From an uncultured Chitinophagaceae bacterium (GTDB lineage Bacteria; Bacteroidota; Ignavibacteria; UBA10030; UBA8401), in NCBI GenBank assembly GCA_964603685.1, contig CAZRWF010000006.1, forward strand, positions 677 to 64,676: a DNA stretch of 64,000 nucleotides. Reading direction: 5' to 3'. Each line of letters starts with the position of its first letter. Within the stretch, counting starts at the first letter, position 1. The notes under the pieces were generated by a model. That model made no database searches. It was given only the letters and a program-made list of their open reading frames with translations, and was not told where the DNA came from. The translations under genes were made by a program, and so were the position numbers. Below, one piece after another: positions 2,355 through 54,611 of the stretch.

Positions 2355-2355
<1 letters not shown>
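1..2355 (+). CDS. actB: Alternative complex III subunit ActB (molybdopterin-like domain fused to a 4Fe-4S ferredoxin domain), 5'-truncated by the window edge
   Basis: Frame 1 is open from nt 1, so the TTG at 34 is not the real start. The C-terminal half has ferredoxin Cys clusters: [11 protein letters not shown] (from nt 1657), [33 protein letters not shown]. NrfD-like, DUF3341, cytochrome c and ActF-like genes follow in ACIII order. Confidence 0.9.
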
Positions 2356-3743
<1,388 letters not shown>

Positions 3744-3745
3744 CC

Positions 3746-6066: not shown

Positions 6067-6081
6067 TTAGGTGTGAACAGA

Positions 6082-7782: not shown

Positions 7783-7798
7783 GCAGGAAAGAGAATTT

Positions 7799-9451: not shown

Positions 9452-10071
9452 GTTCTGCCGATCACACCGCCGTGCATCACGTTCATCGGGACGATTACGG
9501 TTCCCGGATGGGGATGTGGCTCTTTTTGTTCACCGAGCTGATCCTGTTCGGTGGATTGTTCATCATCTATGCCGTTTATCGGTTCATGCATCAGCAGGAA
9601 TTCCACATCGCGGCGCAGGAACTGAACACGACCATCGGACTGATCAACACCATCGCTCTTCTTACCAGCAGTATGACCGCGGCGATGTCCATCACCGCGA
9701 TGCAAAAAGGGAATGTCCGGTTCTCCAAAGGGCTGATCTGGATCACCATCGGATTTGCCTTCGTCTTTTTGGTAAATAAATATTTCGAATGGGGCGCCAA
9801 GATTCACCACGGCATTTATCCCGGTTCCAAGGATCTGTTGAATAAACCGGACGGAGAAATTCTCTACTTCGGTCTGTATTACGTGATGACCGGATTGCAT
9901 ACGTTCCACGTGATTGTCGGTATCGTCTTTTTCTGGTTTATACTTCGACAGATTAATCAGAAAAAAATTCACCAAACACAGTACGTCCGTCTGGAAAATT
10001 CAGCGTTATATTGGCACTTGGTCGATCTCATCTGGATCTTCCTTTTCCCGTTATTCTATCTGATCCATTAA
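9448..10071 (+). CDS. ctaE: Cytochrome c oxidase subunit III
   Basis: 207 aa with 5 TM helices. MWLFLFTELILFGGLFIIY and YWHLVDLIWIFLFPLFYL are typical of subunit III. The GTGA overlaps the ctaD stop. Confidence 0.9.
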   Translation: MSSADHTAVHHVHRDDYGSRMGMWLFLFTELILFGGLFIIYAVYRFMHQQEFHIAAQELNTTIGLINTIALLTSSMTAAMSITAMQKGNVRFSKGLIWITIGFAFVFLVNKYFEWGAKIHHGIYPGSKDLLNKPDGEILYFGLYYVMTGLHTFHVIVGIVFFWFILRQINQKKIHQTQYVRLENSALYWHLVDLIWIFLFPLFYLIH

Positions 10072-21097: not shown

Positions 21098-21140
21098 GCA
21101 GCCTTTGCTCGCCGTGCGACAAAGGCTGCCGGTTTTTTAA
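21098..21140 (+). terminator. Rho-independent terminator after the EF-G paralog
   Basis: 10-bp stem GCAGCCTTTG (21098-21107) / CAAAGGCTGC (21120-21129), then CGGTTTTTT. Confidence 0.75.
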
Positions 21141-21184: not shown

Positions 21185-22618
21185 ATGACGATAACGACGA
21201 AACTATCGACGCGTGCTTTGCTCAACATCGTCTCCCGTATCGCATTTTCGGCCGCTTTTTTTCTGCTGAACGTCGCTGCGGTGAACGAACTCGATCCGGA
21301 ACGGTATGGCCGGTCGCAATTTATTGTCTGGATCGTTTACGTCTCCTGGTTGGTCGGAAACCTCGGGCTTCCTTCCGTGCTTATCCGTTACGGTCCGCTT
21401 TTTCCGTTGCGGTCCATTCTATCTTCCGTGACGGCAATTTTTCCATCCGGATGGTTGGTCGCAACGGTGATTGTTTTCGGTGCGGGGATGATGGCGATGT
21501 TCGGCCGGGAAGGTCCGATGATGACGGTGATGTTGACCGGTCTGGGACTATCGATGCTGATCACATCCGTGTTGGAAGGTTCTTTCCTGAACAGGGTCAA
21601 TGCGGTTTCCTCCGTCATCGCGGCTGCGGCAACGGGTGCACTCTGTCTTCCGCTGATTCGAATGTTCGGTGTGGATGGTTATTATGCTGCGATCGCGGTG
21701 TATTTCTATTCGTACAGCGCCGCCTCCCTTCCGGCGATCGTTCGGACGGTGCGTGAACAACGCACGCGGACGGCGCCGGCAGATATCGCATCGGCCGGGA
21801 TGTTGCGGTACGCGTTGGCCATGTGGCTGATCGGTATCGTGTCGGCATTCGTTTGGCAGCGGCTCGAGATCGTGTTCTTGCAGACCTTCCTGACGCCGCG
21901 CGATATTGCGTTTTTTTCCGTCGGCTTTTTGTGTGCCTCCGTGCCGGTTCAATTTTTCGGCATACTCGTGTCCGGATTGGTCCCGTATTTTTCCCTTCAT
22001 GCCTCTCGCGGACATGCCGGCCAATTGCCGCATGTTTATTCCGTGAATGTCACGGCCATCGGCACCGCCGCAATTTTTGTTGCAGTGTTCTTTTCGGTCT
22101 ATGCTGATCGAATTTTACCGGCGGTATTCGGTGAGGTGTACCGAGAAAGTGTGACCGCCGCCGTGTTGCTGATGGCCGCCATGCCGCTGGCTGCGATCGG
22201 TGCCGTCGGCTCTGCCGTTCTCAAAGGCATCGGCAAACCGAATACACTTTTGGTTTCCAATGTCACCGGATTGGCCGCCGCCGTTCCGTTGTATTATTGG
22301 GCGATAACTTCGTATCATTTGGAAGCGATGCTGGTGATCAGAATCGGTATATTATTTTTGGTGGTCGGAATTGAATACGCCGCCCTCAAACGCGCCGTTC
22401 GGTACCGAATGCCGTTCCTTCCGTTGTTTTTTGCCGCTGCGGTTGCTTCGGTGATCGTTTTCGGCAGTACTTTTGTGCAGTTCGGTGAGTCGCTTCCGGC
22501 CGTGGCCGGCAGTGCGGTGTGTGCATTTGCCGTGTTCGCCGCGGCGGTGATCGTGCTGCGGATTGTGACGGTGGAGGATGTGCGCCGGTACTTCCAGATT
22601 GAAAATACCGCTGCATGA
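21185..22618 (+). CDS. Wzx-like polysaccharide/oligosaccharide flippase (MOP superfamily)
   Basis: About 477 aa with about 14 TM helices and no soluble domain. The ORF-track start at 20990 overlaps EF-G and the terminator; the first ATG after the terminator is 21185. Confidence 0.65.
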   Translation: MTITTKLSTRALLNIVSRIAFSAAFFLLNVAAVNELDPERYGRSQFIVWIVYVSWLVGNLGLPSVLIRYGPLFPLRSILSSVTAIFPSGWLVATVIVFGAGMMAMFGREGPMMTVMLTGLGLSMLITSVLEGSFLNRVNAVSSVIAAAATGALCLPLIRMFGVDGYYAAIAVYFYSYSAASLPAIVRTVREQRTRTAPADIASAGMLRYALAMWLIGIVSAFVWQRLEIVFLQTFLTPRDIAFFSVGFLCASVPVQFFGILVSGLVPYFSLHASRGHAGQLPHVYSVNVTAIGTAAIFVAVFFSVYADRILPAVFGEVYRESVTAAVLLMAAMPLAAIGAVGSAVLKGIGKPNTLLVSNVTGLAAAVPLYYWAITSYHLEAMLVIRIGILFLVVGIEYAALKRAVRYRMPFLPLFFAAAVASVIVFGSTFVQFGESLPAVAGSAVCAFAVFAAAVIVLRIVTVEDVRRYFQIENTAA

Positions 22619-24219
22619 ATTCACCGACGGCGGCGATACCATCCCTTTCGTTCGGAGCGCCGTTGCGCGCCGTGTTGATTGTTGTCTTCTGCAACATTGT
22701 CATTTTCCTCCCTGCCGTCTTCCTCTTTCCCGGCTTTATCGGAGATGATTATGTCGTGATGGAGTACATCGAACGCCGGCCGGACCAATTTTTTGCAGAG
22801 GATACGAACGCGCCGTTCTTTTTATATACACGGCCTCTGTCGGTCGCGTTTTTCCGGTTACTGCATTTCGCCGCACCGGATGAACCGCTGACCATGAAAT
22901 TGATCACGGTGACCGTACATCTGTTGTATGCGTCGATCGTTCCGCTGATCTTCTTTGCGATCGGACGGATCACCGGTCGGCGGCTTCCGGATTCGATCGT
23001 CATTCTCATCTCGCTCATCGTTACCCTTCATCCCGATGCGTTATTGTGGGTCGATTGGATTTCCAACGCCAACGAACTTCTGATGCTGCTGCTGTATGCC
23101 GGCGGATTGTTCTGTCTGCTTCGATACGCATCCTCCGCCGCATCATCACCGTTACTTCCGGCGGCCGCCGTGCTCTTGTTTCTATTGTCAACGCTTGCCA
23201 AACAACAGTCGATCCACTTTCCGCTGATCATTCTGCTGTTCACGCATGGTGTGTGGCGGAATGTACTTTCCCCGCTCCAGCGGCGCACATTAACCGCCGC
23301 CGCCGCCGTCGGTGCGGCAGCGGTGGCGGTTGAGATCTACGTCAACTACCACGTCAACATTGCGTCGGCGGGGATTGTTCGCTGGGATGACCTACCCAAA
23401 AAACCGTTTGCAGTGATTGGTACAATATTCTACATCGGTGTTCCGCTTTTCGGGCTTGACCTCTATCATTTTTTTGTCGCCCATAAGTTTGCCGCCGTTG
23501 TCACGGCGATAGTGATGATCGGCGCCGCATACCGGTGGCGGAACAACATTCCGTGGAACTTTGCCGGAACGGCCGCCGTCGTGACGATGTTCGTCTTTTT
23601 TCCCCGTTTCATCGGACCCGGCGGTGAACGGATCAATGCCCTTCAGCTGTTGTGGTTCGGTATATTACTGGCCGTATTGGCGGACCTCGTTCCTCGAAAA
23701 ACGTTGATACGAACGGTGCTTTGTGTAATGCTTGCCGGGAATATCATTGCCACCGGTATCGTCTTGGAACGTCAACGATCGGACTATCGAACTTCGCATC
23801 AAATGATCGCGGAGCTGCGGGGTCTTCAACAAAGCGCCGATCGGCCGATCGTGGTGCTCTTTTCCACTCTGTATGTGAGCTGGCCGCAGCAATTGATCGA
23901 CAAAGGCGAACAATCGATGCCCGACATCATGTTCTCCGGAGTAATCACAAAACCGATGGTGCGGGATTTCGGCATAACGCTGTCGGCGATGCCGGAACAA
24001 CGGAAGGATACGATCACGGTGACGGTGACTGATGCCGCAACGACATTGGATATGCTCAAGTATCATTCCGTCGGAATAAAGGTATCCGGTGAACGTTCCG
24101 CACAGCGCGGGTGGCGGCGCATTTCGTTTGTTTTACCCGATTCATTGCGGTCGCGTCCGCTGCAATTGGTGTATCCGTCCGATACCGGATGGGTGCGATT
24201 ATCGTGGGAGCATCCGTGA
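22615..24219 (+). CDS. Polytopic membrane protein, GT-C-fold (ArnT/PMT-like) glycosyltransferase candidate; a Wzy-like polymerase is not excluded
   Basis: About 11 TM helices plus a ~150-aa C-terminal soluble domain. An acidic GDDY motif lies right after TM1, where GT-C enzymes carry their DxD/ExD loop. ATGA overlap with the flippase stop. Confidence 0.4.
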   Translation: MNSPTAAIPSLSFGAPLRAVLIVVFCNIVIFLPAVFLFPGFIGDDYVVMEYIERRPDQFFAEDTNAPFFLYTRPLSVAFFRLLHFAAPDEPLTMKLITVTVHLLYASIVPLIFFAIGRITGRRLPDSIVILISLIVTLHPDALLWVDWISNANELLMLLLYAGGLFCLLRYASSAASSPLLPAAAVLLFLLSTLAKQQSIHFPLIILLFTHGVWRNVLSPLQRRTLTAAAAVGAAAVAVEIYVNYHVNIASAGIVRWDDLPKKPFAVIGTIFYIGVPLFGLDLYHFFVAHKFAAVVTAIVMIGAAYRWRNNIPWNFAGTAAVVTMFVFFPRFIGPGGERINALQLLWFGILLAVLADLVPRKTLIRTVLCVMLAGNIIATGIVLERQRSDYRTSHQMIAELRGLQQSADRPIVVLFSTLYVSWPQQLIDKGEQSMPDIMFSGVITKPMVRDFGITLSAMPEQRKDTITVTVTDAATTLDMLKYHSVGIKVSGERSAQRGWRRISFVLPDSLRSRPLQLVYPSDTGWVRLSWEHP

Positions 24220-25181
24220 TCACCGTGCTGCTGCCGACATATAATTCCGCGGAAATCATCGGTCGGTCGATCCGTAGCATTCTGCAGCAAACTTTTTCGG
24301 AGTTTGAACTGTTGATTGTTGATGACGGATCGACGGATGCGACGGCCGACGTCATCCGCCGGTTCCGCGATCGCCGCATCCGTTATCTCCCGTGTCCTCA
24401 CCGCGGACTTCCGGAAACACTCAACACCGGTTTGCGTGAGGCGCGATACGACGTTATCGCCCGGATGGATGCCGGTGATGTTTCGGTTCCCGCGCGGTTG
24501 GAAAAACAGTTCGCGGAATTATCGGCACTTTCGCCGACGGCGGTGATCGGGTGTCATTTCGGTGTCTTTTCCGGCGGCCGGCTGCGATATGTGGTGGAAT
24601 CCGGCGGCTCCTCGGCAGAAATCCGCCGACGCCTTGCACTTCATTCGGTGATCGTGCATAGCGGATCGATGTACCGACGGTCGTTAGTACTGGAATCGGG
24701 CGGATACCGCGATGTTCCGTTGGAAGATTATGACCTCTGGTTGAGGGTGAAACACCGGGCGGAATTTTCGATTCTCGGCGAGGTGCTGCATTTTTGGGAG
24801 AATGCACCGAACAGACTTTCAACGGCGGACCTGGAAAAAAAATGGAAAAATCATTATCTGCTGCAGGAAAAATATTATACCGATCTGCAGCGTGAATTTA
24901 TGATCGAAGGATCCGATGAACAGGCCGTCGTTCGGGGCTGGCGCGAATATTTTTACGGAGAAAAAAAAGCGGCGCGACAATGGTGGAATCAATCGCCGCA
25001 GTGTGTTATTCTGTCCATCAGACTCATGACGGCGTATTGTTTCACCTTTCTGCCCGAACAATATTTTCGGAGGATCAAAGAGAGCCGGCTCCGATTCCGG
25101 ATCCGCACGGTACTGCGGATATTTTCCGCAGACCGGGGAACGGCACGGCGGCAGTTTGCCGCGCTGATGAGGGAGCCATGA
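24189..25181 (+). CDS. Family 2 glycosyltransferase (GT-A fold)
   Basis: VLLPTYNSAEIIGRSIRSILQQTFSEFELLIVDDGSTDAT signature. An alternative GTG start at 24216 forms a GTGA overlap with the upstream stop. Confidence 0.85.
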   Translation: MGAIIVGASVITVLLPTYNSAEIIGRSIRSILQQTFSEFELLIVDDGSTDATADVIRRFRDRRIRYLPCPHRGLPETLNTGLREARYDVIARMDAGDVSVPARLEKQFAELSALSPTAVIGCHFGVFSGGRLRYVVESGGSSAEIRRRLALHSVIVHSGSMYRRSLVLESGGYRDVPLEDYDLWLRVKHRAEFSILGEVLHFWENAPNRLSTADLEKKWKNHYLLQEKYYTDLQREFMIEGSDEQAVVRGWREYFYGEKKAARQWWNQSPQCVILSIRLMTAYCFTFLPEQYFRRIKESRLRFRIRTVLRIFSADRGTARRQFAALMREP

Positions 25182-26281
25182 CCATCCTTTTGGTGACCGA
25201 TCATTTGTTTCCCGGCGGAATTTCCCGGCATGTTGTTGACCTGGCGAACGGTTTGCAGGATCGGGGAATGAGTGTCACCGTTGCGGCGACAGACGGAGAG
25301 TTCCGTTCATTCCTTCGTCCGGACATTCGTTTCCTGGAGCTCTTCTTGCGAAAATCCGATTCCGGTCAAAAAAATCTCAACGGAATCGTTGCGTCGGCCG
25401 CCCGCCTGCGGTCATTTTTCCGGAAGAATCCCGTCGACATCGTTCATACGCATATGCGTTTTTCCGGAGTTCTTGTCCGTGCGGTTATGCCGGTCCGACA
25501 CATACCGTTGGTCACGAGCTATCATTCGCTGGTCACGGGTAAAAAACTGTTTACCGTATTAGGGGACCGAACGGTCGCCTGCAGCCACGCCGTCCGCCGA
25601 TCATTGATCGAACGGATCGGCGCCGATCCGCGCACGATATCGGTGATGTATAACGGAATTCCTCCTATCACCGACGATCCGCTGTACAGAGCCGGGGATG
25701 CTGAACTTCCAGAAAAAATCAAACAGGCAAAAAAAGTGATCACAACGATCGTCCGTCTGGTTCCCTCCAAAGGCATCGACGGAATTATCCGCGCCGTCGC
25801 GATACTCCGGAATTCCGCCGATCTGCGCGGCGTCGTATTCGTCGTGATGGGAAACGGGGCCGATCGTCATCGCTATCACGCCAAAATCGCCGCCGCCGGC
25901 GTGGAGAACCATATCATGATCGTGGACGGACGCCTCTCGGTTGCCCGTTTGATCGAACGTTCGGAGTTTCTGTTGCTCAATTCGTCGTCACAGGAAGGAT
26001 TCGGTATCGTACTGCTGGAAGGAGCCCGTGCTGGAAAAATGACCGTCGGTACCCGGGTCGGAGGGATTCCCGAGTTCATTGAAGAGGGGAGAACAGGCGT
26101 TTTGATCGATCCGAATGCTCCGTCTCAATTGGCCGCACGCGTGCAGGAATTACTGCAGCAGCCGGAGGAGTACCGGCGGATGGGGGAGGCCGCCCGGGAA
26201 AAATATGAACGGTCATTTACGGCAGCACGCATGGTGGACGAAGTGTCGGACATCTATCGATCGGTACAGCGAACGGCATGA
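25178..26281 (+). CDS. Family 4 glycosyltransferase (GT-B fold)
   Basis: MTILLVTDHLFPGGISRHV N-terminus. EGFGIVLLEGARAGKMTVGTRVGGIPEFIEEG (E-x7-E region). ATGA overlap with the GT2 stop. Confidence 0.85.
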   Translation: MTILLVTDHLFPGGISRHVVDLANGLQDRGMSVTVAATDGEFRSFLRPDIRFLELFLRKSDSGQKNLNGIVASAARLRSFFRKNPVDIVHTHMRFSGVLVRAVMPVRHIPLVTSYHSLVTGKKLFTVLGDRTVACSHAVRRSLIERIGADPRTISVMYNGIPPITDDPLYRAGDAELPEKIKQAKKVITTIVRLVPSKGIDGIIRAVAILRNSADLRGVVFVVMGNGADRHRYHAKIAAAGVENHIMIVDGRLSVARLIERSEFLLLNSSSQEGFGIVLLEGARAGKMTVGTRVGGIPEFIEEGRTGVLIDPNAPSQLAARVQELLQQPEEYRRMGEAAREKYERSFTAARMVDEVSDIYRSVQRTA

Positions 26282-27462
26282 ACCAAAAAAAAATCACATC
26301 CATCGTCTTCATCGTTCAGAATAATTCTTTTCCGTTCGATCATCGCGTGTTCAAGCAGGCACGGAGTGCTTCTGCCGCCGGCTACGATGTGCATGTGATC
26401 TCCCCGCAGTCGGCGTTGGATCCGCAACCGGAAGAAACCATCGACGGCGTCCGGGTGTATCGGTACCCGAATGCACTTTCTTCCGGTTCGTTCTCCGGAT
26501 ACATCAAGGAATATGCCGTTTCCATATATTATATCTATCGAATGTTCCGTACATTGTGCGGACGATTCGACGTCGCGGCGGTTCATGTCGCCAATCCGCC
26601 GGATCTCTTCTGGCCTCTGGCATTGTACTGCAAAATGTATGGTATCCGATTCATTTATGATCAGCACGATCTTGTGCCTGAAATGTACGCACTGCGGTTC
26701 GGCAAAGGATTCGTGTACTGGATCTTACTCCTCAACGAATATTTGACGGCCCTGCTGGCCGATCACATCATTACGGTGAATTCCACTTTTGTCCGCCGCT
26801 CCCGGAAAAAATGGGGATTGCCGGAAGAAAAATATACGGTGGTGATGAATGGACCGTCGAAAGGACCGGTCCGGACTCCGCCGCAACACTTGCTGGAACG
26901 ATATCGCGGATCCAAAGTGATCGTGTATGTCGGTTTAATGTCGGTGAACGATCACATCGACGTTGTTTTGGAACTGGCCAGCGATATCTTGCTGAAGCAT
27001 GGACGGACGGAATGCCGGTGTATTCTTATCGGATCGGGCGATGTTGAACCGCGCATGAGACAATTGTCCCGCGATATGAATATCGACGACGTCGTTGAGT
27101 TCACCGGTGCACTCCCACACGCGGCGGTGATGGAATATCTCGCGCTGGCCGACCTCTGCCTCGTCCCCGACCGGCCGAACGGAATGAACGAATATTTGAC
27201 GCATGTCAAAACTTTGGAATATATGATGGCATCGAAACCGTTTGTCGGTTTTCACCTGAAAGAAACGATGGACCGGTCCATGGGATCGGCTCTGTTTGCT
27301 TCGGACAGGGATGATTTCGCGTCGAAAGTACTTTTTCTGTTGGACCATCCGGACGAGGCCCGGCGACTCGGAGAACATGGCCGCGCCGCCGTGATGAACG
27401 GACTATTGTGGGAACATTCCGAACAGCATTTATTATCCGCCTATCAAAAGATTCTTTTGTGA
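26278..27462 (+). CDS. Family 4 glycosyltransferase (WbuB-like)
   Basis: 394 aa with GT-B architecture. C-terminal LVPDRPNGMNEYLTHVKTLEYMMASKPFV region. ATGA overlap with the previous stop. Confidence 0.75.
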   Translation: MNQKKITSIVFIVQNNSFPFDHRVFKQARSASAAGYDVHVISPQSALDPQPEETIDGVRVYRYPNALSSGSFSGYIKEYAVSIYYIYRMFRTLCGRFDVAAVHVANPPDLFWPLALYCKMYGIRFIYDQHDLVPEMYALRFGKGFVYWILLLNEYLTALLADHIITVNSTFVRRSRKKWGLPEEKYTVVMNGPSKGPVRTPPQHLLERYRGSKVIVYVGLMSVNDHIDVVLELASDILLKHGRTECRCILIGSGDVEPRMRQLSRDMNIDDVVEFTGALPHAAVMEYLALADLCLVPDRPNGMNEYLTHVKTLEYMMASKPFVGFHLKETMDRSMGSALFASDRDDFASKVLFLLDHPDEARRLGEHGRAAVMNGLLWEHSEQHLLSAYQKILL

Positions 27463-30400
27463 AGATCTCCCTTCGAATTATCCTCTTTCTCTTCGGCTGT
27501 GCCGTAACGTTAAACGCACAACTGCGCTTGTTGAACGAACGATTGGTCGGGCAACGATATACGGTGGAATATGTTTTTCATCGCGAGTGGAGAGGGATGC
27601 CGTCGGCGGAACACGCGGCCTCGTCGGACTATCCCGCACAACACCTGTTTATCGCACTCCCGATGGAAACGGAAACGCCGGCGAATATTTCGATCGTCTG
27701 GAAAAATGGGCCGGTCGGCGGGTCTTCCGTTCCGGAGGGGGCCGTCACTGTGAAAGGATTTGTATGGATCGGCCAATATCGCACCCTTCACATTGAAGTA
27801 CGACCGGTGGTTGTTTCTCCAGTCAACGGTACGGAAAGAGAGATCGAACGACTATCGCTGGAGTTTATCGTTCCTCCGAACCGACCGTCGTCGATCGGAA
27901 CCGAATCCCGGGAATCGCCGGTCATCGACAATCCGACATACGGCTCGCAATGGACCGTACGCCGCATGCCGGAGAGCGGGATACAGCACGATGGATGGAT
28001 CGACTATTCTTCCGAATATGTCAAACTGGGCGTGGCGGCAGACGGAATATACCGGCTCCGGTATTCCGATTTGCAACAGTATGGAGTACCGGTCGGGACG
28101 ATCAATCCCAAAGCGTTAAAAATGTACCTGAAAGGGAAAGAGATTCCCATCCGCGTCACCGGTGAGGCGGACGGTCAGTTTCATCACGATGATGTCGTGG
28201 AATTTGTCGGACGGAGGAATTACGGCGATCCGCGATACCGGGAAGCCGCCCCGTACGGTTCTTCGTATTACGAATATTTGGACCGGTATTCCGACACGAC
28301 CATTTATTGGCTTCGCTGGACCGGTGCCGACGGTAAACGGATTGTTCAACATTCGGACGGTCCCGCGCCGCCGAACGATACGATCCGGCATTATGATCGG
28401 TTGATGAGAGTGGAACGGGACTATCATTGGGATTTTTCTTTGGAAGGGGATGAGATCCGGAGGAACTTCCCGGAGTTGCTGGAAAATGAACGGTGGGGCG
28501 AAGGGGGATTCGGCGTAGGAAGTGTTTCCGTTTCATTCGATGTGACGGATCGATTTCCCGGCCGGCCGGCGCGAGCGTTCATGAAACTGCAGGATTATGC
28601 CTCCAGTATCACGACGAATGCCCACAAAGTAGCATTGTCGATCAACCAAGGTGCCGTGCGGTACGATTCGGGATATATCAACAAATATCAGGTGAAAACC
28701 CTGACGGCCGCTTTTCATTCGACTCTGCTGCAGAACGGCATCAATACCGTTGATCTGCATTCGTACGCCACCGCCAGCACAGTGAACTCCGTCCATCGGG
28801 ATTGGTGGGAATTGGAGTATCCGCGATATCTTCGCGTCCTGTCGGACTCCCTCACTTTCGGCTACACAATGCTGGAGTCGCCCCGCCGAGCAGTGGTAGC
28901 CGTTACCGGTCTTACCACCCCGTCGGTTTCGTTGTACAAATTCCGTTCGAGTGACAGCCTGGTGTCGCTCGTTTCCACCGTTACCGTTTCGAACGATACG
29001 CTCTATTTTGCAGATTCGGTCACGAACGACATCACATATTTTCTCCAAAAAGAATCAACGGCACGGGCGCCGATTTTTTTCACGAAAAAGAAATTCGTCA
29101 ATCTGCGGGAGAGTTCGCGTTCGGCCCAATACCTTGCAATCACTCATCCCGTCTTCCTTTCTTCGGCCGCTCAATATGTTTCCTTTATCGCCTCCGCCTA
29201 TTCCGTGAGCACAGCCGTGATCAATGTGGAAGATATCTATGATGAATTTTTTTACGGTTTTTTTTCCCCCGAACCGATCCGCGAATTTCTGAAAATGACC
29301 CATTCACGATGGCAGTTGCCGTCGCCGAAACACGTTGTGTTAATCGGAAAGGGGACGTATGATTTCTACGGCAATAAAAGCAAATATTTCGCCGCGCCCC
29401 GCGTGATCAACTTTGTTCCTTCCTGGGGGAATCCCGTGTCGGACAATTGGTTTGTCCTGTGGGACAGCACGGAGGCGTATATTCCGCAAATGAATATCGG
29501 CAGAATTCCCGCGCGGACGGTCGAAGAGTTTCAATCATATGCCGTTAAACATCAAAAGTACGTTGCGAAAGGATTTGATGACTGGAACAAACGGTATCTT
29601 TTCTTTTCGGGCGGAAATTTTACCGATCCGAACCAGATCGCGCAGTCCAAAAGTGTCAATGACTTCATCATCACTCAATATGTCGAACCGCCGCCGGTCG
29701 GAGGACGGGCGATGAATTTTTACAAGACGAACGATCCCGTTACCAATTTTGGTCCGTATGCGCCGGACGTCGTCCAATCTTCTATCGACAACGGCGCCGT
29801 CTTCATCTCCTATATCGGACACAGCGGAACGCAGACGTGGGACAACAGCATTACCGATATTTCCCAACTGGCCAACAACCGCGACCGTCATCCGATGATT
29901 TCGGATTTCGGCTGTTCGACCGCAAAATTTGCGGAACCGGACATCCTTTCCTTTTCCGAATTAGCGGTGAATTCCGCGAATGGTCAGGCCATTGCCTACA
30001 TCGGGAACTCTTCCCTGGGATTTACGACCACGGCATTCACGTTCCCCCAGATTTTTTATAAACGGTTATTGACCGATTCTTCCGTGTCGCTGGGGGATGC
30101 GCACCGGCGGGCCAAAATTGATTTTATCAAACAGTTCGGCACGGCGAATTCCCACGGATTGTTCATTAAAACAAATACTCTTATCGGCGACCCGATCGTA
30201 CGGCTCCAGGTTCCGCAAAAACCGAATCTCTCCCTGGCGGTGGAATCCCCTTCTGTGTCGCACCTCCCGGTGACGGACCGACAAGACAGCGTGACTCTCG
30301 TTGTTCCCGTCTATAACATCGGCACCGTTACGAACGACACTGTCGTGGTGTCGGTCCGGACGGTTTATCGCGGTGCGGAAAATTATGCACGTCATTTCCG

Positions 30401-33400
30401 GCTGCCGATGCCGTCGTTCCGGGAATCGTTGACCGTCGCCGTGCCGGTATTACAGCAACCGGGAGAACATACGGTTTTTATTTCCATCGACTCCGTGAAT
30501 GTGATCGATGAAATCAGCGAGACGGACAATAGTGTTTCGCTCTCGGTGATCGTAGCGACCACCGCCGTCCGGAACCTGTCCGAATACCAAACAGTGAACG
30601 GCACCACCGGCACGATTTCGTTTTTAAATCCTTCGATCGTACCGACCTCCTCGTCCTTTACCTTCACGGTAAGCGATAATCCGCAGTTTCAGAACGCGGT
30701 GACACGGCAAGTCGCCTACGATACGTTTGCGACCGCCGTGGCGATCGATCCGGAGTTCTCCGGAAAACGGATTTGGGTCAAGGCAAAACAATCCGACGCG
30801 TCGCCGGAAGGGCTGGCGTTTTCATACCGGGTCGGGAGTCCCTTGACGGCGGTGTTCGACGATAGCACGGCATTCCGCACAACGACGATGTCGGGAACCG
30901 TTTATGATCACAGCGGTGTCCGGCTCGATTCAGCGCGAACGACGTTCGGAGTGATCTCCGGGGGTTTTAATGACGGGATCACTGCCGTGATTACCCGCAA
31001 CGGACAGAATTATGTTCCGGAAAACACGCTGCGCGGGCATCACGTGGTGTTATTCGAAGCCGGATCATTCGCATTTCATTCCTACCGGCGATTCGACATT
31101 TTTGCCAGTGCATCCGTAGCAGCCCAGTATGTTTCGTTTCTCGACACGCTGAACGACCAGTATATCGTCGCGATCGGTATTGCCGATGAAGGATCGCAAA
31201 ACTTGACGGCAGAACTCCGTTCGGCGCTCAAAAATTTCGGCAGTCGTTGGATTGACAGTGTCCGATTCCGCAGCTCGTGGGGCATTATCGGCCGGAAAGG
31301 ATCATCACCCGGTTCTGTTCCGGAAATGGTATCGCATCCCTTCGGCGGAAGGATCTCGATCGATACCACGATCATTTCACCCACCACCGACGGCGTTCTG
31401 ACGACGCCGGTCTTGGGGCCGGCAGCCGAGTGGACTGTGCTCCGTGTGAACAAACAAACGCCGGCGAACAGTTTATTGTCGATCGGAGTGGTCGGAATCA
31501 CGGCGGAGGATCAACGGGACACGTTGTTCGTCCATACCGCACTCGATTCCGTCGTGTCGCTTGCTTCCGTCAATGCATCGCAATACCCGTTTCTGCAGTT
31601 GTTCGCCCGGCTGCAGTCAGGACCGGGAAATATTTCTCCCCGTGTCACCTCCCTCGGAGTACATCATCGATCGCTGGCGGAACTCGGCGTCAACAGCCAA
31701 ACAATGTCGGTATACAAAATTCTTCCGGCCGGCGAAGAAATTCTCCTCCAACCGAATGACACCGTGTTCCAGGGTGAAAAAGTGAGGATCACGTATCGTA
31801 TCGACAATGCCGGCGGTGTGACGGCCAAAAAAATACCGCTTGCCATCACCTCTCTGTGGGACAACAACGCGAAGGAACAGATCGCCGAACGGGTCATCGA
31901 TTCGATTCCGCCGGGCAAACAATTCCGAAGTTCCGCGGAATATGCGACGACGCTGGGAAGCGGTCGAAGGACGCTGCGGATGACCATTGACGGCGATTCC
32001 TCGGTCGCGGAGCGTTGGAAGGATAATAATTCGTATTCTTTTCCATTCATCGTGCGACCGCGCTCCGGAAACCCTCTTCTGCCGAACGTTTTCATTCTGA
32101 GTTCCGGCATCCGTTCCGAACCGGCGGTGATCACGGACGAGACCGATACCGCACGGTTCCATATCGCGTACGGAAATTCCGGTGCGTTAACAAACGATTC
32201 CGTTGCCATCCACATTCGGCATTTTTATCAAGGGAATCTTTCCGGCAGCTGGGTGGTGCGGAGGAAATATCCCGCAACGGCCGATACGGTATCATTGAGC
32301 ATTCCGATCGGCGCACGGGCCGGAAACCATCACCTCACGGTCGAATTGGATTATACCGGGACGATCACGGAATTTTCCGAAACGGACAATATGGCGAGTT
32401 TCTATTTTACCGTTGCGACGACGGATTTTAAGATGATGACACCCGTGGCGTTGAACGTTGCTCCCGTGACGGCGATGATATTTTTGAATCCCACCGCACC
32501 GTCGATCGGCACCGAAACGGTCCGGCTGGAATTGGATACGGTGTCCGGTTTTTCCGCTCCGTTGACGTTTACGGTTCCGTTGCGGGGATTGACGTCGGTC
32601 TTCTCCGTGCCCGGACTTCAACCGCAACAACGGTATTTTTGGAGGGTGAAAATCCTTCAACGTCCGCGCGACTGGACCTCCGGTTCCTTCTACTCCGGCG
32701 GGGCGACCACGGCGCTCGTGGGAAGCAGTGACTCTCTGTCCTGGTCCGCCGGAAGTTTCATTCGTGCGGAATACCGGCCGTCGACAGGTGCCGTGATCGT
32801 CGATTCGAAATACCGGCTTTCGACCTATTCCGCCGGAACGGCGGACGGTAACACCGGACGGATCGAACGGAACGGCAGCAACGTGATTGCTCCCGTGTTC
32901 GGCAGGGGATTTGCAATTGCGGTGTTCGATTCGACCGATCTGACCCTGTTGTCGATCCGCCGGTTCGACGTTTCTGCCGATTCGTCCCTTGCCGATTCAT
33001 TATCCGCCTATATTACCGGAATTTCTGCCGGAAATATCGTCGCAGCAGTCGTTATTGAAGACGGAGCGAACAATTTAACGGCAGCGGCGCGTAATGCGTT
33101 CCGTTCGATCGGCAGCGGAAAGATCGATCTATTATCCTACGGCGATTCATGGTCGATCATCGGAAGGAAAGGAGCGGCGCCGGGAAGCGTACCGGAAGAG
33201 TGGAAATCGAGTTCATCCGGAGCGGCGGTAGCCGATACGACGTTTCTCCGACCCGAAACGGATGCGATCATCAGCACACCTTCCTTCGGACCATTCAGCG
33301 GATTGAACATGTTGCACGTCGAACATTTGATTCCGGCAGGGGCGCACAATACCGTTCACTTTGTCGGTGAAACCGACGAGGGGACGAAGGATACATTGAT

Positions 33401-34553
33401 CACCGCCGTGGATCAGCAACAAATATCGCTGGCCCCGGTTGACGTAAAAAAATATCCGAAAGGAAGGGTGATCTTTCATTTGCAGCGTTCCACCGCGGTT
33501 CGGGCGATGCAAAGAAACTCCGCGGCATCCACGCCGTCGGTTCAGCGGTGGACCATCTCGGCACGTCCTTCGACGGAACTCGCCTTTCCGAACAACGGTG
33601 TCTCGATCGATGATGACAACGTCATGGAAGGGGAACCGCTCCGGGTACACGCTTCCATTATCAATGTCAGCTCTGTCGAAGCCGAATCGGTTCGTGTCCG
33701 GGTCAAAACCACGACCTCCGGCATCGACAACATCATTCAGGATCGCTACTTTTCCGCCCTCCCGCCGGGAGACACTGTCCGAATATCCGTGGAGATGAAT
33801 ACCCGCGGGAAAAAAGGATCGCATTCCGTTACCGTGGAGATCGATCCGGAGCGGCGTCAGTCGGAATATTCGCGCTCCAATAACGTCGTGACAATCCCCT
33901 ACACCATTGCGGGCGATTCGATCCGTCCGACGTTACTCATGACCGTTGACGGTGCTCCCTTTTTGGACGGGGAGTTTGTTGCCCGCCAACCGGAGATTCT
34001 GATCCGGTACGCGGATAATAATCCCGCGCAGCTGCTGTCCACCGATACGTCACAGTTTCGCATTGAGCTGAACCGCGAACGGGTATATTTCTCACCGGGA
34101 ACACTTGAGTTGTCCGTCTCCTCGTCACCGGGAGAGGCCACTCTCCGATGGATGCCGGTGTTGCCGGAAGGAAGGAGTGATGTGGTGATCTCCGCGGGGG
34201 ATATTTCCGGGAACGGCGCCGACACCATCGCCGTGATGATGAACGTCACATCCGATTTTTCGCTTCAAAAAGTTTTTTCGCTGCCGAATCCGTTCAGAAC
34301 AGCGACTGCATTCACCTTCGTCATCTCCGGCCCGGAAGATCCGGACGACGTGGTTGTCAAAATTTACACCGTGGCGGGGAGATTGATCAAAGAGATTACC
34401 TCTCACGGGAAAGTGGGTTTCAACAGGATCGATTGGGACGGAACGGACAACGACGGCGATGCGATCGCCAATGGGGTCTATTTCTACAAAGTGATCGTTC
34501 GATCGTCGGGAAAACAGACCGAAGGGCTTTCGAAAATCGTCAAAATGCGGTAA
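27459..34553 (+). CDS. Giant (~2,364 aa) PorU-like C25/gingipain-family protein with CARDB-like domains, two ILEI/FAM3-type lectin-like domains and a T9SS C-terminal sorting domain
   Basis: GTG 27459 (GTGA overlap with the GT4 stop) yields the signal peptide VKISLRIILFLFGCAVTLNAQ. The catalytic-type motifs are YIGHSG (His codon 29820-29822) and DFGCST (Cys codon 29913-29915). CARDB-like domain endings are ETDNSVSLSV, KDNNSYSFPF, ETDNMASFYF and RSNNVVTIPY. The CTD is LPNPFRTATAFTF...WDGTDNDGDAIANGVYFYKVIV (about 34272-34550). Confidence 0.8.
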   Translation: MKISLRIILFLFGCAVTLNAQLRLLNERLVGQRYTVEYVFHREWRGMPSAEHAASSDYPAQHLFIALPMETETPANISIVWKNGPVGGSSVPEGAVTVKGFVWIGQYRTLHIEVRPVVVSPVNGTEREIERLSLEFIVPPNRPSSIGTESRESPVIDNPTYGSQWTVRRMPESGIQHDGWIDYSSEYVKLGVAADGIYRLRYSDLQQYGVPVGTINPKALKMYLKGKEIPIRVTGEADGQFHHDDVVEFVGRRNYGDPRYREAAPYGSSYYEYLDRYSDTTIYWLRWTGADGKRIVQHSDGPAPPNDTIRHYDRLMRVERDYHWDFSLEGDEIRRNFPELLENERWGEGGFGVGSVSVSFDVTDRFPGRPARAFMKLQDYASSITTNAHKVALSINQGAVRYDSGYINKYQVKTLTAAFHSTLLQNGINTVDLHSYATASTVNSVHRDWWELEYPRYLRVLSDSLTFGYTMLESPRRAVVAVTGLTTPSVSLYKFRSSDSLVSLVSTVTVSNDTLYFADSVTNDITYFLQKESTARAPIFFTKKKFVNLRESSRSAQYLAITHPVFLSSAAQYVSFIASAYSVSTAVINVEDIYDEFFYGFFSPEPIREFLKMTHSRWQLPSPKHVVLIGKGTYDFYGNKSKYFAAPRVINFVPSWGNPVSDNWFVLWDSTEAYIPQMNIGRIPARTVEEFQSYAVKHQKYVAKGFDDWNKRYLFFSGGNFTDPNQIAQSKSVNDFIITQYVEPPPVGGRAMNFYKTNDPVTNFGPYAPDVVQSSIDNGAVFISYIGHSGTQTWDNSITDISQLANNRDRHPMISDFGCSTAKFAEPDILSFSELAVNSANGQAIAYIGNSSLGFTTTAFTFPQIFYKRLLTDSSVSLGDAHRRAKIDFIKQFGTANSHGLFIKTNTLIGDPIVRLQVPQKPNLSLAVESPSVSHLPVTDRQDSVTLVVPVYNIGTVTNDTVVVSVRTVYRGAENYARHFRLPMPSFRESLTVAVPVLQQPGEHTVFISIDSVNVIDEISETDNSVSLSVIVATTAVRNLSEYQTVNGTTGTISFLNPSIVPTSSSFTFTVSDNPQFQNAVTRQVAYDTFATAVAIDPEFSGKRIWVKAKQSDASPEGLAFSYRVGSPLTAVFDDSTAFRTTTMSGTVYDHSGVRLDSARTTFGVISGGFNDGITAVITRNGQNYVPENTLRGHHVVLFEAGSFAFHSYRRFDIFASASVAAQYVSFLDTLNDQYIVAIGIADEGSQNLTAELRSALKNFGSRWIDSVRFRSSWGIIGRKGSSPGSVPEMVSHPFGGRISIDTTIISPTTDGVLTTPVLGPAAEWTVLRVNKQTPANSLLSIGVVGITAEDQRDTLFVHTALDSVVSLASVNASQYPFLQLFARLQSGPGNISPRVTSLGVHHRSLAELGVNSQTMSVYKILPAGEEILLQPNDTVFQGEKVRITYRIDNAGGVTAKKIPLAITSLWDNNAKEQIAERVIDSIPPGKQFRSSAEYATTLGSGRRTLRMTIDGDSSVAERWKDNNSYSFPFIVRPRSGNPLLPNVFILSSGIRSEPAVITDETDTARFHIAYGNSGALTNDSVAIHIRHFYQGNLSGSWVVRRKYPATADTVSLSIPIGARAGNHHLTVELDYTGTITEFSETDNMASFYFTVATTDFKMMTPVALNVAPVTAMIFLNPTAPSIGTETVRLELDTVSGFSAPLTFTVPLRGLTSVFSVPGLQPQQRYFWRVKILQRPRDWTSGSFYSGGATTALVGSSDSLSWSAGSFIRAEYRPSTGAVIVDSKYRLSTYSAGTADGNTGRIERNGSNVIAPVFGRGFAIAVFDSTDLTLLSIRRFDVSADSSLADSLSAYITGISAGNIVAAVVIEDGANNLTAAARNAFRSIGSGKIDLLSYGDSWSIIGRKGAAPGSVPEEWKSSSSGAAVADTTFLRPETDAIISTPSFGPFSGLNMLHVEHLIPAGAHNTVHFVGETDEGTKDTLITAVDQQQISLAPVDVKKYPKGRVIFHLQRSTAVRAMQRNSAASTPSVQRWTISARPSTELAFPNNGVSIDDDNVMEGEPLRVHASIINVSSVEAESVRVRVKTTTSGIDNIIQDRYFSALPPGDTVRISVEMNTRGKKGSHSVTVEIDPERRQSEYSRSNNVVTIPYTIAGDSIRPTLLMTVDGAPFLDGEFVARQPEILIRYADNNPAQLLSTDTSQFRIELNRERVYFSPGTLELSVSSSPGEATLRWMPVLPEGRSDVVISAGDISGNGADTIAVMMNVTSDFSLQKVFSLPNPFRTATAFTFVISGPEDPDDVVVKIYTVAGRLIKEITSHGKVGFNRIDWDGTDNDGDAIANGVYFYKVIVRSSGKQTEGLSKIVKMR
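30939..31325 (+). other. ILEI/FAM3-type (GG-type lectin-like) domain 1 within the giant protein
   Basis: LRGHHVVLFEAGSFAFHSYRRFDIF...YIVAIGIADEGSQNLTAELRSALKNFGSRWIDSVRFRSSWGIIGRKGSSPGSVPE. From memory this matches the FAM3C core pattern GRGINVAL..FD....GTIVL..YDDGATKL..EAR..I..LGS..I..LGFRD.W.F.G.KG. Confidence 0.65.
32811..33200 (+). other. ILEI/FAM3-type (GG-type lectin-like) domain 2 within the giant protein
   Basis: GRGFAIAVFDSTDLTLLSIRRFDV...NIVAAVVIEDGANNLTAAARNAFRSIGSGKIDLLSYGDSWSIIGRKGAAPGSVPEE. It shares the same pattern as domain 1 and the FAM3 family. Confidence 0.7.
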
Positions 34554-34565
34554 TGCCGCGGGTTC

Positions 34566-34874
34566 TTAAAGGGGGAGGTCCGACAGTTTATATCCGACCC
34601 CTTTCAGGACGGTGATCACTTCCTTATTGTCCAACCGGCCGACTTTTTTCCGGATGTTGCTGATGTGTACGTCGATCGTCCGCGGAAAGTTCAACTCCTT
34701 TTTACCCCAAACATACTCCGCAATTTCCCGGCGTGAATGTACTTTTCCCCGCGTGCTCATCATCAAATACAGAATGCGGAATTCCGTTTTTGTCAACGTG
34801 ATCGAGACACCGTTGCGGAACACGACGTACCGTTCCGGATCGATAACCAAGTTTCCGACATGAATTGTTTCCAC
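34566..34874 (-). CDS. Standalone OmpR/PhoB-type winged-helix DNA-binding protein (no receiver domain)
   Basis: LTKTEFRILYLMMSTRGKVHSRREIAEYVWG...RTIDVHISNIRKKV...GVGYKL is a full Trans_reg_C signature. The GTG at 34874 is preceded by AAGGAG (34885-34880) at 5-nt spacing. The TTG at 34919 is the ORF-track alternative. Confidence 0.75.
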   Translation of the reverse strand: METIHVGNLVIDPERYVVFRNGVSITLTKTEFRILYLMMSTRGKVHSRREIAEYVWGKKELNFPRTIDVHISNIRKKVGRLDNKEVITVLKGVGYKLSDLPL

Positions 34875-35017
34875 AGTTTCTCCTTCTGCGTGTAAGGTAA
34901 ACAGTCCCGGTAACGCCAATGGAACCGTAATGTTAAGATTCCGTTAACAGGTTGCGCCGCGCCGGCCGGAATTGGTAACAAAATTTTCATTCATCCATTA
35001 CGCCTGCGTTGCGACGG

Positions 35018-53409: not shown

Positions 53410-53484
53410 TGTGCGCTGAAACAACAGTGGTAAGAAAGATCTTTATTAATTATATTCAATAAATAATCATTGAGGAGTTTCACG

Positions 53485-54597: not shown

Positions 54598-54611
54598 TCG
54601 TTCCCGACCGA

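Follow-up and report, generated by a model that had tools for sequence, protein, structure and literature searches.

A second, giant PorU-like protein encoded behind a set of glycan-assembly genes and its possible role in surface glycan attachment

Why a gene related to the type IX secretion (T9SS) sortase PorU should lie directly behind a set of glycan-assembly genes is the question raised by this locus. In P. gingivalis, PorU couples proteins with a glycolipid (PMC10202324, PMC7468200), for which a linker oligosaccharide is built on Und-PP by four glycosyltransferases (GTs) and then flipped (PMC10202324, PMC7468200, PMC13086638). A preliminary description of the 64,000-nucleotide stretch of DNA analysed here (hereafter the window) had reported a flippase, a GT-C-like protein, one GT2, two GT4 and a giant PorU-like protein as a stitched gene unit, and our reading-frame check indeed found six open frames on the + strand at 21185-34553, with the following features and boundaries:

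21098..21140, + strand: intrinsic-terminator-like hairpin and U-run (sequence and RNA fold)
21185..22618, + strand: gene 1, 477 aa, divergent Wzx/MOP-type (Polysacc_synt-like) flippase (hhalign, TM count, position)
22615..24219, + strand: gene 2 (g2), 534 aa, polytopic GT-C-like protein, PMT_2-related (hhalign to PMT_2+TPR GT-C proteins)
24216..25181, + strand: gene 3, 321 aa, GT2 glycosyltransferase (PF00535, E 1e-30)
25178..26281, + strand: gene 4, 367 aa, GT4 glycosyltransferase (PF00534, E 4.7e-33; PF13439, E 5.5e-26)
26278..27462, + strand: gene 5, 394 aa, GT4 glycosyltransferase (PF13692, E 2.6e-16; PF13579, E 1.3e-14)
27459..34553, + strand: gene 6, 2,364 aa, PorU-family paralogue, marginally NCBIfam 'PorU2' (PF01364, NF052324, 6za2)
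34566..34919, - strand: convergent stand-alone Trans_reg_C (winged-helix) gene, 117 aa, unit boundary (PF00486, E 1.8e-21)

All five junctions are start/stop overlaps of 4 nt and lie exactly where they had been placed (ATGA at 22615-22618, GTGA at 24216-24219, ATGA at 25178-25181, ATGA at 26278-26281 and GTGA at 27459-27462), with an ATG at 24189 as a possible alternative start of gene 3. Both proposed boundaries were also recovered. The stem at 21098-21129 folds with -26.9 kcal/mol (z = -5.96, equalled by 0/200 shuffles) and is followed by a U-run. The unit thus starts behind a hairpin that closes the EF-G-like gene upstream; owing to an inner loop, a simple terminator scan did not detect this hairpin. 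At the other end, the stop codon of the giant gene is separated from the convergent Trans_reg_C gene by 12 nt. Judged from this arrangement, the six genes may well constitute one operon and be co-transcribed, a point that belongs to the overall explanation given below, which we regard as evenly poised.

The identities given to genes 1-5 likewise held. Gene 1 had no direct Pfam or NCBIfam match in profile searches and matched PF01943 proteins weakly; its alignment to the Wzx/Polysacc_synt flippase profile (hhalign 97.9%, E 4e-13, 359 columns), its approximately 12 hydrophobic segments and its place in the slot held by Wzx in related loci identify it as a Wzx-like flippase. Gene 2, also without a direct Pfam match, encodes about 10 TM segments plus some 145 aa of soluble tail and belongs to a family of at least 102 representatives, whose distant relatives carry PF13231 PMT_2 plus TPR. 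Its match to these PMT_2+TPR GT-C proteins (hhalign 99.6%, E 7e-25) and an invariant DD motif (D44-D45) after TM1 agree with a GT-C-like protein (invariant residues listed: D45, K196, P203 and R339). The one GT2 and two GT4 enzymes all gave clear Pfam matches. The best NCBIfam matches of the two GT4 genes were XrtA-system GTs, below cut-off. Pfam/NCBIfam annotation of the kit yielded neither an initiating phosphoglycosyl transferase nor a polymerase or ligase, and the kit also lacks amino-sugar or aminoacyl-sugar genes to supply an amine nucleophile of the kind that PorU uses in P. gingivalis.

Gene 6 starts with a GTG at 27459, which yields a canonical signal peptide, VKISLRIILFLFGCAVTLNAQ, in agreement with the consensus N-terminus of the family. 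The signal peptide is followed by a PorU-type N-region, a C25 domain, two CARDB-ILEI-CARDB modules and, at the C-terminus, PorU-like domains ending in a type A CTD; of these parts the following could be delimited:

29130..30206, + strand: Peptidase C25 catalytic domain, aa 558-916 (Pfam)
31032..31304, + strand: ILEI/FAM3/POMGnT1-stem-like domain 1, aa 1192-1282 (PF15711, E 3e-19; PDB FAM3C, FAM3B, POMGnT1 stem, TMEM2)
32151..33893, + strand: second CARDB-ILEI-CARDB module, inserted, aa 1565-2145 (ILEI-2 at 32904-33176)
33903..34550, + strand: PorU-like C-terminal region, aa 2149-2364 (6za2, BLASTP)
34284-34508, + strand: T9SS type A CTD, aa 2276-2350 (TIGR04183, 29 bits, cut-off 23)

The C25 domain (PF01364, E 3.3e-60) retains an intact catalytic dyad, with His788 encoded at 29820-29822 and Cys819 at 29913-29915; both residues align with their counterparts in P. 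gingivalis PorU (PDB 6za2), and the surrounding GHSG and DFGCS motifs are invariant in 14 family members. Together with the CTD and the match to 6za2, this bears out the view of the giant protein as C25/PorU-like with a T9SS CTD. The second module is missing from the 1,770-aa family members, with zero occupancy in the thirteen shorter forms (about 1,750-1,800 aa) taken into alignment A3; other long forms occur at loci L007-L021, L037 and L049. The ILEI domains are related in PDB comparisons to the glycan-binding POMGnT1 stem and to the TMEM2 domain. The POMGnT1 stem binds O-mannosyl glycans, and lectin activity is not general among FAM3-type ILEI domains.

As had been proposed, gene 6 encodes a true second PorU paralogue, because the same window also contains a canonical PorU-PorV pair, 15 kb downstream of the giant gene:

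49417..53409, + strand: canonical PorU sortase, 1,330 aa (NF033707, 980.9 bits, cut-off 420)
53470..54597, + strand: canonical PorV outer-membrane shuttle, directly 3' of PorU (NF033710, 272 bits, cut-off 250; NF033709, 319 bits)

A C25 domain combined with a type A CTD is also found in gingipains, and the giant protein might therefore be T9SS cargo and not a sorting enzyme, namely a gingipain-like surface protease or adhesin for which the glycan of the upstream genes serves as anchor or decoration, or which binds environmental glycans through ILEI/CARDB. Several Ig-like CARDB and ILEI modules are typical of adhesins, no PorV-like partner was found in the gene neighbourhood of the giant gene, and the two tandem copies (L084, L085) or two loci present in some genomes would be more cargo-like. 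However, the resemblance to PorU extends well beyond C25: the N-terminal 380 aa also fit the PorU and PorU2 profiles, the matches to NF052324 (PorU2; 474.4 bits, just above the cut-off of 450) and NF033707 (PorU; 296.8 bits, below the cut-off of 420) span aa 177-1024, and the last 215 aa fit the PorU C-terminal domains specifically, both in 6za2 (residues 1002-1149, E 6.9e-14) and in the window's own PorU (BLASTP to its C-terminus, E 3e-12). Moreover, the CTD (55%) and the C25 domain (52%) are the most conserved parts across the clade, as expected of a machine component, while the ILEI domains show 39% mean identity. A role as cargo thus appears rather improbable.

The preliminary description had staked its case on the linkage being conserved in related genomes, and it is. 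Species-level Ignavibacteriota-type loci for which 5 kb or more of upstream sequence was available (n=55) have at least one GT gene in this upstream stretch of 5 kb in 54/55 cases and at least three in 52/55, whereas on the downstream side of the PorU-like gene one GT gene occurs in 4/54 loci and two in 0/54. One of the related loci (L077) belongs to Stygiobacter electus 09-Me. Given this recurrence and nothing comparable downstream, the adjacency of glycan genes and PorU-like gene is more than chance. PorU-like identities among the relatives are as low as 33%, the GT repertoire varies by locus, and other ORFs within the clusters are glycan-related too (methyltransferases, Capsule_synth, GLF).

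Such recurrence might also reflect a PorU-like gene that lies stably beside the variable surface-polysaccharide locus (O-antigen or capsule-like) of the phylum, devoid of functional coupling, with the PorU-like protein acting as a second CTD peptidase/sortase on ordinary LPS or on nothing glycan-specific. Variable glycan loci are often flanked by conserved genes that have no functional tie to them, as enterobacterial O-antigen clusters are by conserved housekeeping genes. All relatives with the linkage fall in one phylum-level group, so that the synteny may be inherited; the usual left flank (TPR, LolB-like DUF4292 and M23) is likewise kept in about 30 loci; GT9, WecG and GLF genes, which typify general loci for LPS or O-antigen, occur in related loci; and those Bacteroidota PorU2 loci that were checked have no glycan genes next to them. 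The GT gene nearest to the PorU-like gene is divergent, on the other strand, in about half of the relatives, which also fits an uncoupled flank and means that co-transcription is not general. Yet the adjacency persists across varied right flanks and, in 14 or more loci (the window among them), despite a replaced left flank, and the last GT gene overlaps the PorU-like gene or sits <=7 nt from it in 21/31 co-oriented cases. As the protein also carries conserved lectin-type ILEI domains and glycolipid conjugation is inherent to PorU chemistry, we consider an uncoupled flank unlikely, though less so than the other two alternatives.

The kit could alternatively serve periplasmic protein glycosylation. 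A polyprenyl-P-sugar would come from the GT2, be translocated by the flippase and be passed on to Ser/Thr of secreted proteins by the PMT_2-like GT-C, with the PorU-like enzyme selecting glycosylated cargo via ILEI and supplying no anchor. The homology of g2 to PMT_2/TMTC-type GT-C proteins would suit this scheme, as would the g2-GT2 pairing in about 15 loci (the GT2 directly follows g2 in most g2-bearing relatives, and g2 is inverted, upstream of Wzx, in three) and the fact that, of the solved ILEI relatives whose ligand is known, the POMGnT1 stem is the closest. We nonetheless judge it very unlikely, with g2 homologues in only about 19/86 loci against the near-universal GT linkage, and with two GT4 and a Wzx-type flippase favouring an Und-PP oligosaccharide over single-sugar transfer.

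Among known systems, P. gingivalis PorU (PG0026; partners PorV, PorZ and PorQ) shares with gene 6 the PorU-type N-region, the C25 His/Cys dyad, the C-terminal domains and the type A CTD, at about 20% identity. Gene 6 is, however, twice as long, with two inserted CARDB-ILEI-CARDB modules, and lies away from porV, last in a glycan operon, in a genome with its own canonical PorU-PorV. The P. gingivalis A-LPS/A-linking-saccharide pathway (WbaP, GtfC, GtfF, VimF, Wbp/Vim and the PorS flippase) resembles the kit in that a few GTs and a flippase make the lipid-linked oligosaccharide that receives sortase cargo (PMC13086638, PMC7468200). Its genes are scattered and unlinked to porU (PMC7323717), whereas those of the kit are contiguous with a sortase paralogue and lack Wbp/Vim-type amino-sugar genes. 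A protein-sorting enzyme gene within a glycan locus is also known from PEP-CTERM/exosortase (EpsH/XrtA), where a transpeptidase-type enzyme is embedded in exopolysaccharide loci (PMC1569441), but exosortase is a membrane enzyme with a fold unrelated to the surface C25 peptidase, and its sorting signal and secretion route differ.

The supposition that this operon type was undescribed stood in part. Our literature search found no paper describing PorU2 or a linkage between a PorU-like gene and a glycan locus, but the protein family already has a name in NCBIfam, where NF052324 ('putative type IX secretion system sortase PorU2') has NF052325 ('PorV2') as its partner. Like gene 6, the Bacteroidota PorU2 (Cytophagia and others, e.g. 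Algoriphagus and Chryseolinea) is a second paralogue beside PorU and large (about 1,650 aa), with ILEI or CARDB in some members. True PorU2, however, reaches 1,035 bits and is preceded by a PorV2 gene that overlaps it, while gene 6 scores 474 and lacks such a partner. The Ignavibacteriota clade that includes gene 6 forms a deep branch apart from PorU2 (21-24% identity), with a near-universal glycan locus and no PorV-like neighbour, the opposite of PorU2.

We therefore propose as the most likely explanation, giving it an even chance, that within the T9SS the giant protein and the kit form a branch dedicated to glycan conjugation or anchoring. Several observations count against this: the gaps in the kit named above, no PorV-like gene near gene 6, a linkage confined to one phylum-level group, a divergent nearest GT gene in about half of the loci, no neighbouring glycan genes at the Bacteroidota PorU2 loci checked, and FAM3-type ILEI domains that are not always lectins. 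Genes 1-5 would build and export a lipid-linked glycan by means of the cytoplasmic GT2 and two GT4, the Wzx-type flippase and the periplasm-facing GT-C, while gene 6 would add to the T9SS a second and specialised cysteine transpeptidase of the PorU type, exported by that system via its own CTD and, as PorU is, kept at the cell surface. The ILEI (FAM3/POMGnT1-stem-type) and CARDB modules of this protein may bind the product of the neighbouring genes, be it glycan or glycolipid. The C25 domain would then cut the CTD off a subset of cargo and link the new C-terminus to the glycan, or otherwise dock the cargo, in parallel to the housekeeping PorU-PorV attachment complex. In Porphyromonas, PorZ presents the glycolipid to PorU, and the lectin-like modules might stand in for PorZ in this respect. 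A second PorU-like enzyme accompanied by a glycan operon in nearly all relatives suggests a separate, so far undescribed route that ties secreted proteins to a dedicated surface glycan.

Reading-frame analysis of the window placed six consecutive + strand open reading frames in the span 21185-34553, the first five of glycan type and the sixth encoding a giant protein of 2,364 aa. The start/stop overlaps listed in the preliminary description all proved exact when read directly (ATGA at 22615-22618, GTGA at 24216-24219, ATGA at 25178-25181, ATGA at 26278-26281 and GTGA at 27459-27462), and taking the GTG at 27459 as the start of gene 6 yields a canonical signal peptide and the family-consensus N-terminus.

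The six-gene unit and its borders
18952-21063, + strand: EF-G-like GTPase of 703 aa with a GTG start, the next gene upstream of the unit
21098-21129: stem of a hairpin with a U-run, after the end of the EF-G-like gene at 21063
21185-34553, + strand: genes 1-6 (gene 6, 27459-34553)
34566-34919, - strand: convergent Trans_reg_C (winged-helix) gene, 117 aa, 12 nt from the unit end at 34553

RNA folding gave the hairpin a stability of -26.9 kcal/mol (z = -5.96), which was reached by 0 of 200 shuffled sequences. The EF-G-like GTPase occupies the place of a TPR/LolB-like/M23 flank known from about 30 related loci, and the 117-aa Trans_reg_C protein is a stand-alone DNA-binding domain without a receiver domain. 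Recent horizontal transfer of the unit was rejected because the GC and GC3 values of genes 1-6 are those of the window.

Three of the glycan genes were assigned by Pfam, namely gene 3 as a GT2 (PF00535, E 1e-30) and genes 4 and 5 as GT4s (PF00534, E 5e-33, and PF13692, E 3e-16, respectively). Gene 1 had no Pfam or NCBIfam match even at E = 10, and its only database relatives were Polysacc_synt (PF01943) proteins (E 7e-7 to 6e-5). It aligned with a Wzx profile built from related loci (hhalign 97.9%, E 4e-13, 359 columns), its product has about 12 hydrophobic segments, where 12-14 transmembrane helices are expected of Wzx/MOP proteins, and its position is that of Wzx in the closest related loci. 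On this sequence evidence, we accept gene 1 as a putative divergent Wzx/MOP flippase. Gene 2 likewise had no direct Pfam match. A full HMMER scan placed it in a family of proteins of about 520-540 aa (102 representatives at E < 1e-10), the most distant relatives of which are TPR-tailed proteins, seven of them matching PMT_2 (PF13231). When the family profile was searched against the PDB, the TPR tails of the distant members swamped the search, while the core family alone gave no match; since nothing usable came from this search, membership was settled by profile-profile comparison, in which the core family matched the PMT_2+TPR proteins (hhalign 99.6%, E 7e-25, 254 columns), the 'DD' motifs of the two lining up. 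D45, K196, P203 and R339 do not vary within the family, and D44 hardly does. The initial guess of a GT-C-like protein is therefore borne out by PMT_2 profile homology and the acidic DD motif, and gene 2 is a predicted GT-C-type enzyme. AlphaFold2 models of genes 1 and 2, built from shallow alignments, were too poor for a fold search (pLDDT around 52). Pfam and NCBIfam recognised no initiating phosphoglycosyl transferase, Wzy polymerase or chain-length/ligase gene in the kit, nor does it hold amino-sugar genes able to supply a nucleophile.

The product of gene 6 is a multidomain protein with the following features.

Architecture of the giant protein (residue ranges)
1-21: signal peptide
177-557: PorU-type N-region
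558-916: Peptidase_C25 (PF01364, E 3.3e-60)
940-1026: CARDB
1192-1282: ILEI
1432-1527: CARDB
1565-1647: CARDB, second module
1816-1906: ILEI, second module
2051-2145: CARDB, second module
2149-2364: PorU-like C-terminal region including a type A CTD

Across an alignment of 14 family members, the motifs GHSG (His788) and DFGCS (Cys819) are invariant, and the family profile aligns these residues with the 'AGHGG' His and the 'TATC' Cys of P. gingivalis PorU (PDB 6za2). We take the latter to be the catalytic His657 and Cys690, with which an offset of 2 between 6za2 chain and protein numbering is consistent. The CTD is of type A (TIGR04183, 29 bits, cut-off 23), and the C-terminal region matches residues 1002-1149 of 6za2 (E 6.9e-14). 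The two CARDB-ILEI-CARDB modules show near-identical domain spacing in Pfam; BLASTP self-comparison detected no internal repeats, so that the duplication is visible only as this spacing. The second module represents an insertion, as there are family forms of 1,770 aa without it. Mean pairwise identity within the family is highest in the CTD (55%) and the C25 domain (52%) and amounts to 39% in ILEI. The ILEI domains match FAM3C (1e-15), FAM3B, the stem domain of POMGnT1 (1.6e-11) and the TMEM2 hyaluronidase (8e-8). Such matches, next to a predicted GT-C-type enzyme, could also fit a GT-C-based protein glycosylation whose products are read by the ILEI domains; about 19 loci contain a homologue of gene 2, mostly with a GT2 gene directly after it, and we consider this explanation quite improbable.

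To place the giant protein among C25 proteins, the NCBIfam profiles and the other type IX secretion system (T9SS) genes of the window were taken into account. Against the PorU profile (NF033707) the protein scored 296.8 bits, below the equivalog cut-off of 420, and against NF052324 ('putative T9SS sortase PorU2') 474.4 bits, marginally above the cut-off of 450. These profiles cover aa 177-1024 and thus extend beyond the C25 domain. A gingipain-type secreted C25 protease, for which no PorU-type N-region is expected, was discarded on account of this coverage. That the protein is itself a surface protease or adhesin cargo of the secretion system would agree with its C25 domain and type A CTD; its C-terminal region and N-region are PorU-like, and we regard such a role as unlikely.

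Further genes of the window
34-10071, + strand: respiratory gene block with a Qrc/ACIII-like molybdopterin and Fe-S fusion protein (773 aa), a DsrP/NrfD-like membrane subunit and cytochrome c proteins
7799-9451, + strand: cytochrome c oxidase subunit I, within the respiratory block
42609-44000, - strand: BamG-family beta-barrel-assembly protein (NF053685, 270 bits) with faint PorV-family similarity
49417-53409, + strand: canonical PorU, 1,330 aa (NF033707, 980.9 bits)
53470-54597, + strand: canonical PorV, 375 aa (272 bits, cut-off 250), directly after canonical PorU
after PorV, within 49417-57663, + strand: T9SS-dependent M6-like inactivated metalloprotease with CTD (NF052323, 852 bits)

The T9SS attachment cluster (49417-57663, + strand) continues with a 456-aa protein without a family match and a 1,053-aa TolB-like beta-propeller protein. 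Because a canonical PorU is encoded in the same window, the giant protein is shown directly to be a second PorU-type enzyme, as had been claimed. A neighbor-joining tree built on the N-region plus C25 gave three deep clades, comprising the Bacteroidota PorU2 proteins (Algoriphagus, Chryseolinea, Hymenobacter), the Ignavibacteriota-type proteins including the giant, and canonical PorU including the copy of the window; between the giant and proteins of the PorU2 and canonical PorU clades, identity is no more than 20-24%. The genomic settings differ as well. The PorU2 gene of Algoriphagus (1,034.9 bits) overlaps an upstream PorV2 gene (NF052325, 559 bits) and has no adjoining glycan genes, and the loci of Hymenobacter and a third Bacteroidota member resemble it. 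PorV2 was confirmed by NF052325 in L006 (L numbers are our handles for related loci), whereas L087 and L088 have an upstream gene of similar size (about 370 aa), identified by size only. PorV2 is absent at the window locus and at all Ignavibacteriota-type loci, no PorV-like open reading frame was found up to 10 kb away from the giant gene or from its 85 relatives, and in the window porV adjoins the canonical porU rather than the giant gene. The giant protein can thus be counted as no more than a marginal NCBIfam PorU2 member and belongs to a different genomic system, because it has no PorV2 partner and sits at a glycan locus, unlike the Bacteroidota PorU2 genes. The 'PorU2' label of NCBIfam accordingly covers at least two genomic systems, one linked to PorV2 and the other to glycan loci.

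The linkage to glycan genes was examined in the relatives. The first five, at 36-54% identity, all had Polysacc_synt, GT2, GT4, GLF, WecG or GT9 genes immediately upstream. Scanning one genome per species yielded 303 relatives, from which the best 80 loci were retrieved; the sampled loci derive almost all from Ignavibacteriota or 'Bacteroidetes' MAGs, in addition to Stygiobacter electus 09-Me and a Melioribacter roseus MAG. All open reading frames of these loci were annotated by jackhmmer with Pfam-labelled genes as seeds.

GT-class genes around the PorU-like gene (the giant's homologue) in related loci
Upstream 5 kb, 55 loci with at least 5 kb there: at least one in 54/55, at least two in 53/55, at least three in 52/55
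Downstream 5 kb (internal control), 54 loci with at least 5 kb there: at least one in 4/54, at least two in 0/54
Nearest GT gene within 300 bp: 61/69 loci with at least 1.2 kb upstream, WecG in 45

The proposed linkage is therefore kept in the relatives, with a GT-class gene upstream in 54 of 55 loci versus 4 of 54 downstream. The usual order is TPR, LolB-like DUF4292, M23, Wzx, GLF, GT2, GT9, GT4, WecG and the PorU-like gene, with a GT set that varies from locus to locus, and the adjacency is retained despite another left flank in at least 14 loci, the window among them. No initiating transferase was recognised in the relatives' clusters either, which add WecG, GT9, GLF, methyltransferases and Capsule_synth; the remaining unclassified open reading frames within them comprised mainly methyltransferases (10/29), Capsule_synth (4), radical-SAM and further GT proteins. 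Of the 61 nearest GT genes, only 31 share the orientation of the PorU-like gene and 30 are divergent; 21 of the 31 co-oriented genes overlap the PorU-like gene or sit within 7 nt of it. Adjacency is general, whereas the translational coupling seen in the window is one of two frequent arrangements. A conserved gene next to a variable glycan locus is not necessarily tied to it in function, and the PorU-like gene might simply form a conserved flank of a variable glycan locus without a functional tie, an explanation that we find rather unlikely yet stronger than the two alternatives above.

In 31/86 loci, the PorU-like gene has a direct downstream neighbour that encodes a conserved, secreted protein about 447 aa long, hereafter D447 (L002 15303-16643; L003 16086-17444; L005 15467-16813; and 28 further loci). 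Its members, 46-58% identical to the L002 copy, have a signal peptide and end in an aromatic C-terminus; Leptospira ImpL63 gave the sole match, over part of the protein, and none was found in the PDB. D447 was rejected as a PorV analogue (hhalign 0.5%), and it may be an outer-membrane partner. It does not occur in the window or with the long two-ILEI forms. In about 10 loci, a small protein of 220-241 aa with a type A CTD is encoded between the PorU-like gene and D447 (L003 15347-16069; also L032, L034, L035, L040, L041, L045, L048 and L076); this protein, absent from the window, is a candidate dedicated substrate or adaptor. Matches of '3,564 aa' in two loci were ruled out as single proteins, since each is a tandem pair of PorU-like genes that encode about 1,775 aa apiece (L084 6381-16370; L085 10001-20692). 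Two MAGs each contain two separate loci (JBBINR01, L023 and L049; CAZTYP01, L050 and L051). A second, distinct GT-C-like family of 485-567 aa, with weak resemblance to arabinofuranosyltransferase and Alg9, is found in some related glycan loci (L001 227-1930; L045, L084, L085). In the clade closest to the window (L001 15323-17784; L008; L013), a GT2 gene comes after the PorU-like gene, together with a gene for Wzi, a capsule-assembly outer-membrane lectin, and Capsule_synth (KpsC/KpsS-like) genes lie upstream in L011 and L013. The glycan in this clade may be capsule-like.

PorU acts as a Cys/His peptidase, cutting off the CTD and moving the new C-terminus to an amine of the A-LPS linking sugar delivered by PorZ, while retaining its own CTD and binding PorV (PMC10202324). 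Four dedicated GTs build the linker oligosaccharide on Und-PP, after which it is flipped and attached to O-antigen (PMC7468200, PMC13086638), and the A-LPS genes are spread through the P. gingivalis genome (PMC7323717). With three putative cytoplasmic GTs, a flippase and an outward-facing GT-C, the window kit would be of the right kind and size for making such a lipid-linked oligosaccharide or modifying one. We hypothesize that the giant protein is functionally coupled to the glycan genes. In the most economical reading, it would work with the glycan product of its own locus, the ILEI/CARDB modules binding this glycan in a PorZ-like role and the C25 domain processing a subset of CTD cargo onto it. 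This model is weakened because the kit has no initiating transferase, polymerase, ligase or amino-sugar genes, and we judge its chances as even. Its fuller version, a self-contained Ignavibacteriota 'glyco-sortase cassette' in which a PorU paralogue with ILEI lectin modules replacing PorZ/PorV-type partners covalently attaches a dedicated subset of T9SS cargo to the strain-variable glycan of the same locus, is a tentative possibility.

In the literature, we found no paper naming 'PorU2', no link between PorU and Ignavibacteriota apart from a brief remark on a possible T9SS in that group, and no description of a PorU paralogue adjoining glycan genes. The enzyme family is already known and the paralogue family is named in NCBIfam; the Ignavibacteriota clade, the ILEI module architecture, the absence of a PorV2 partner and the near-universal place at the end of a variable glycan locus appear to be undescribed. 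A conceptual analogue is provided by exosortase/PEP-CTERM systems embedded in EPS loci (PMC1569441), and the finding extends a known principle rather than revealing a new kind of system. It is robust and kept across the phylum, and the preliminary interpretation held in every testable part (gene identities, second PorU and conserved linkage).

To our knowledge, the anchoring of T9SS cargo has been worked out almost only in Porphyromonas, where the genes for the acceptor glycolipid are scattered and their identification took two decades. Here, a putative acceptor pathway and a sortase paralogue lie in one conserved unit across a whole phylum, with a species-variable glycan part, which would matter to specialists of T9SS and of surface glycans. 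If the cassette reading is true, it would be the first T9SS attachment enzyme encoded together with its glycolipid acceptor pathway and would provide these bacteria with a second, independently variable surface coat. Provided that the link is functional, it would offer a genomic handle on the glycans used by T9SS sortases outside Bacteroidota and a natural system to study or engineer protein-glycan surface display, it would give the ILEI/FAM3 fold a bacterial role, and one cell would be able to run two attachment branches.
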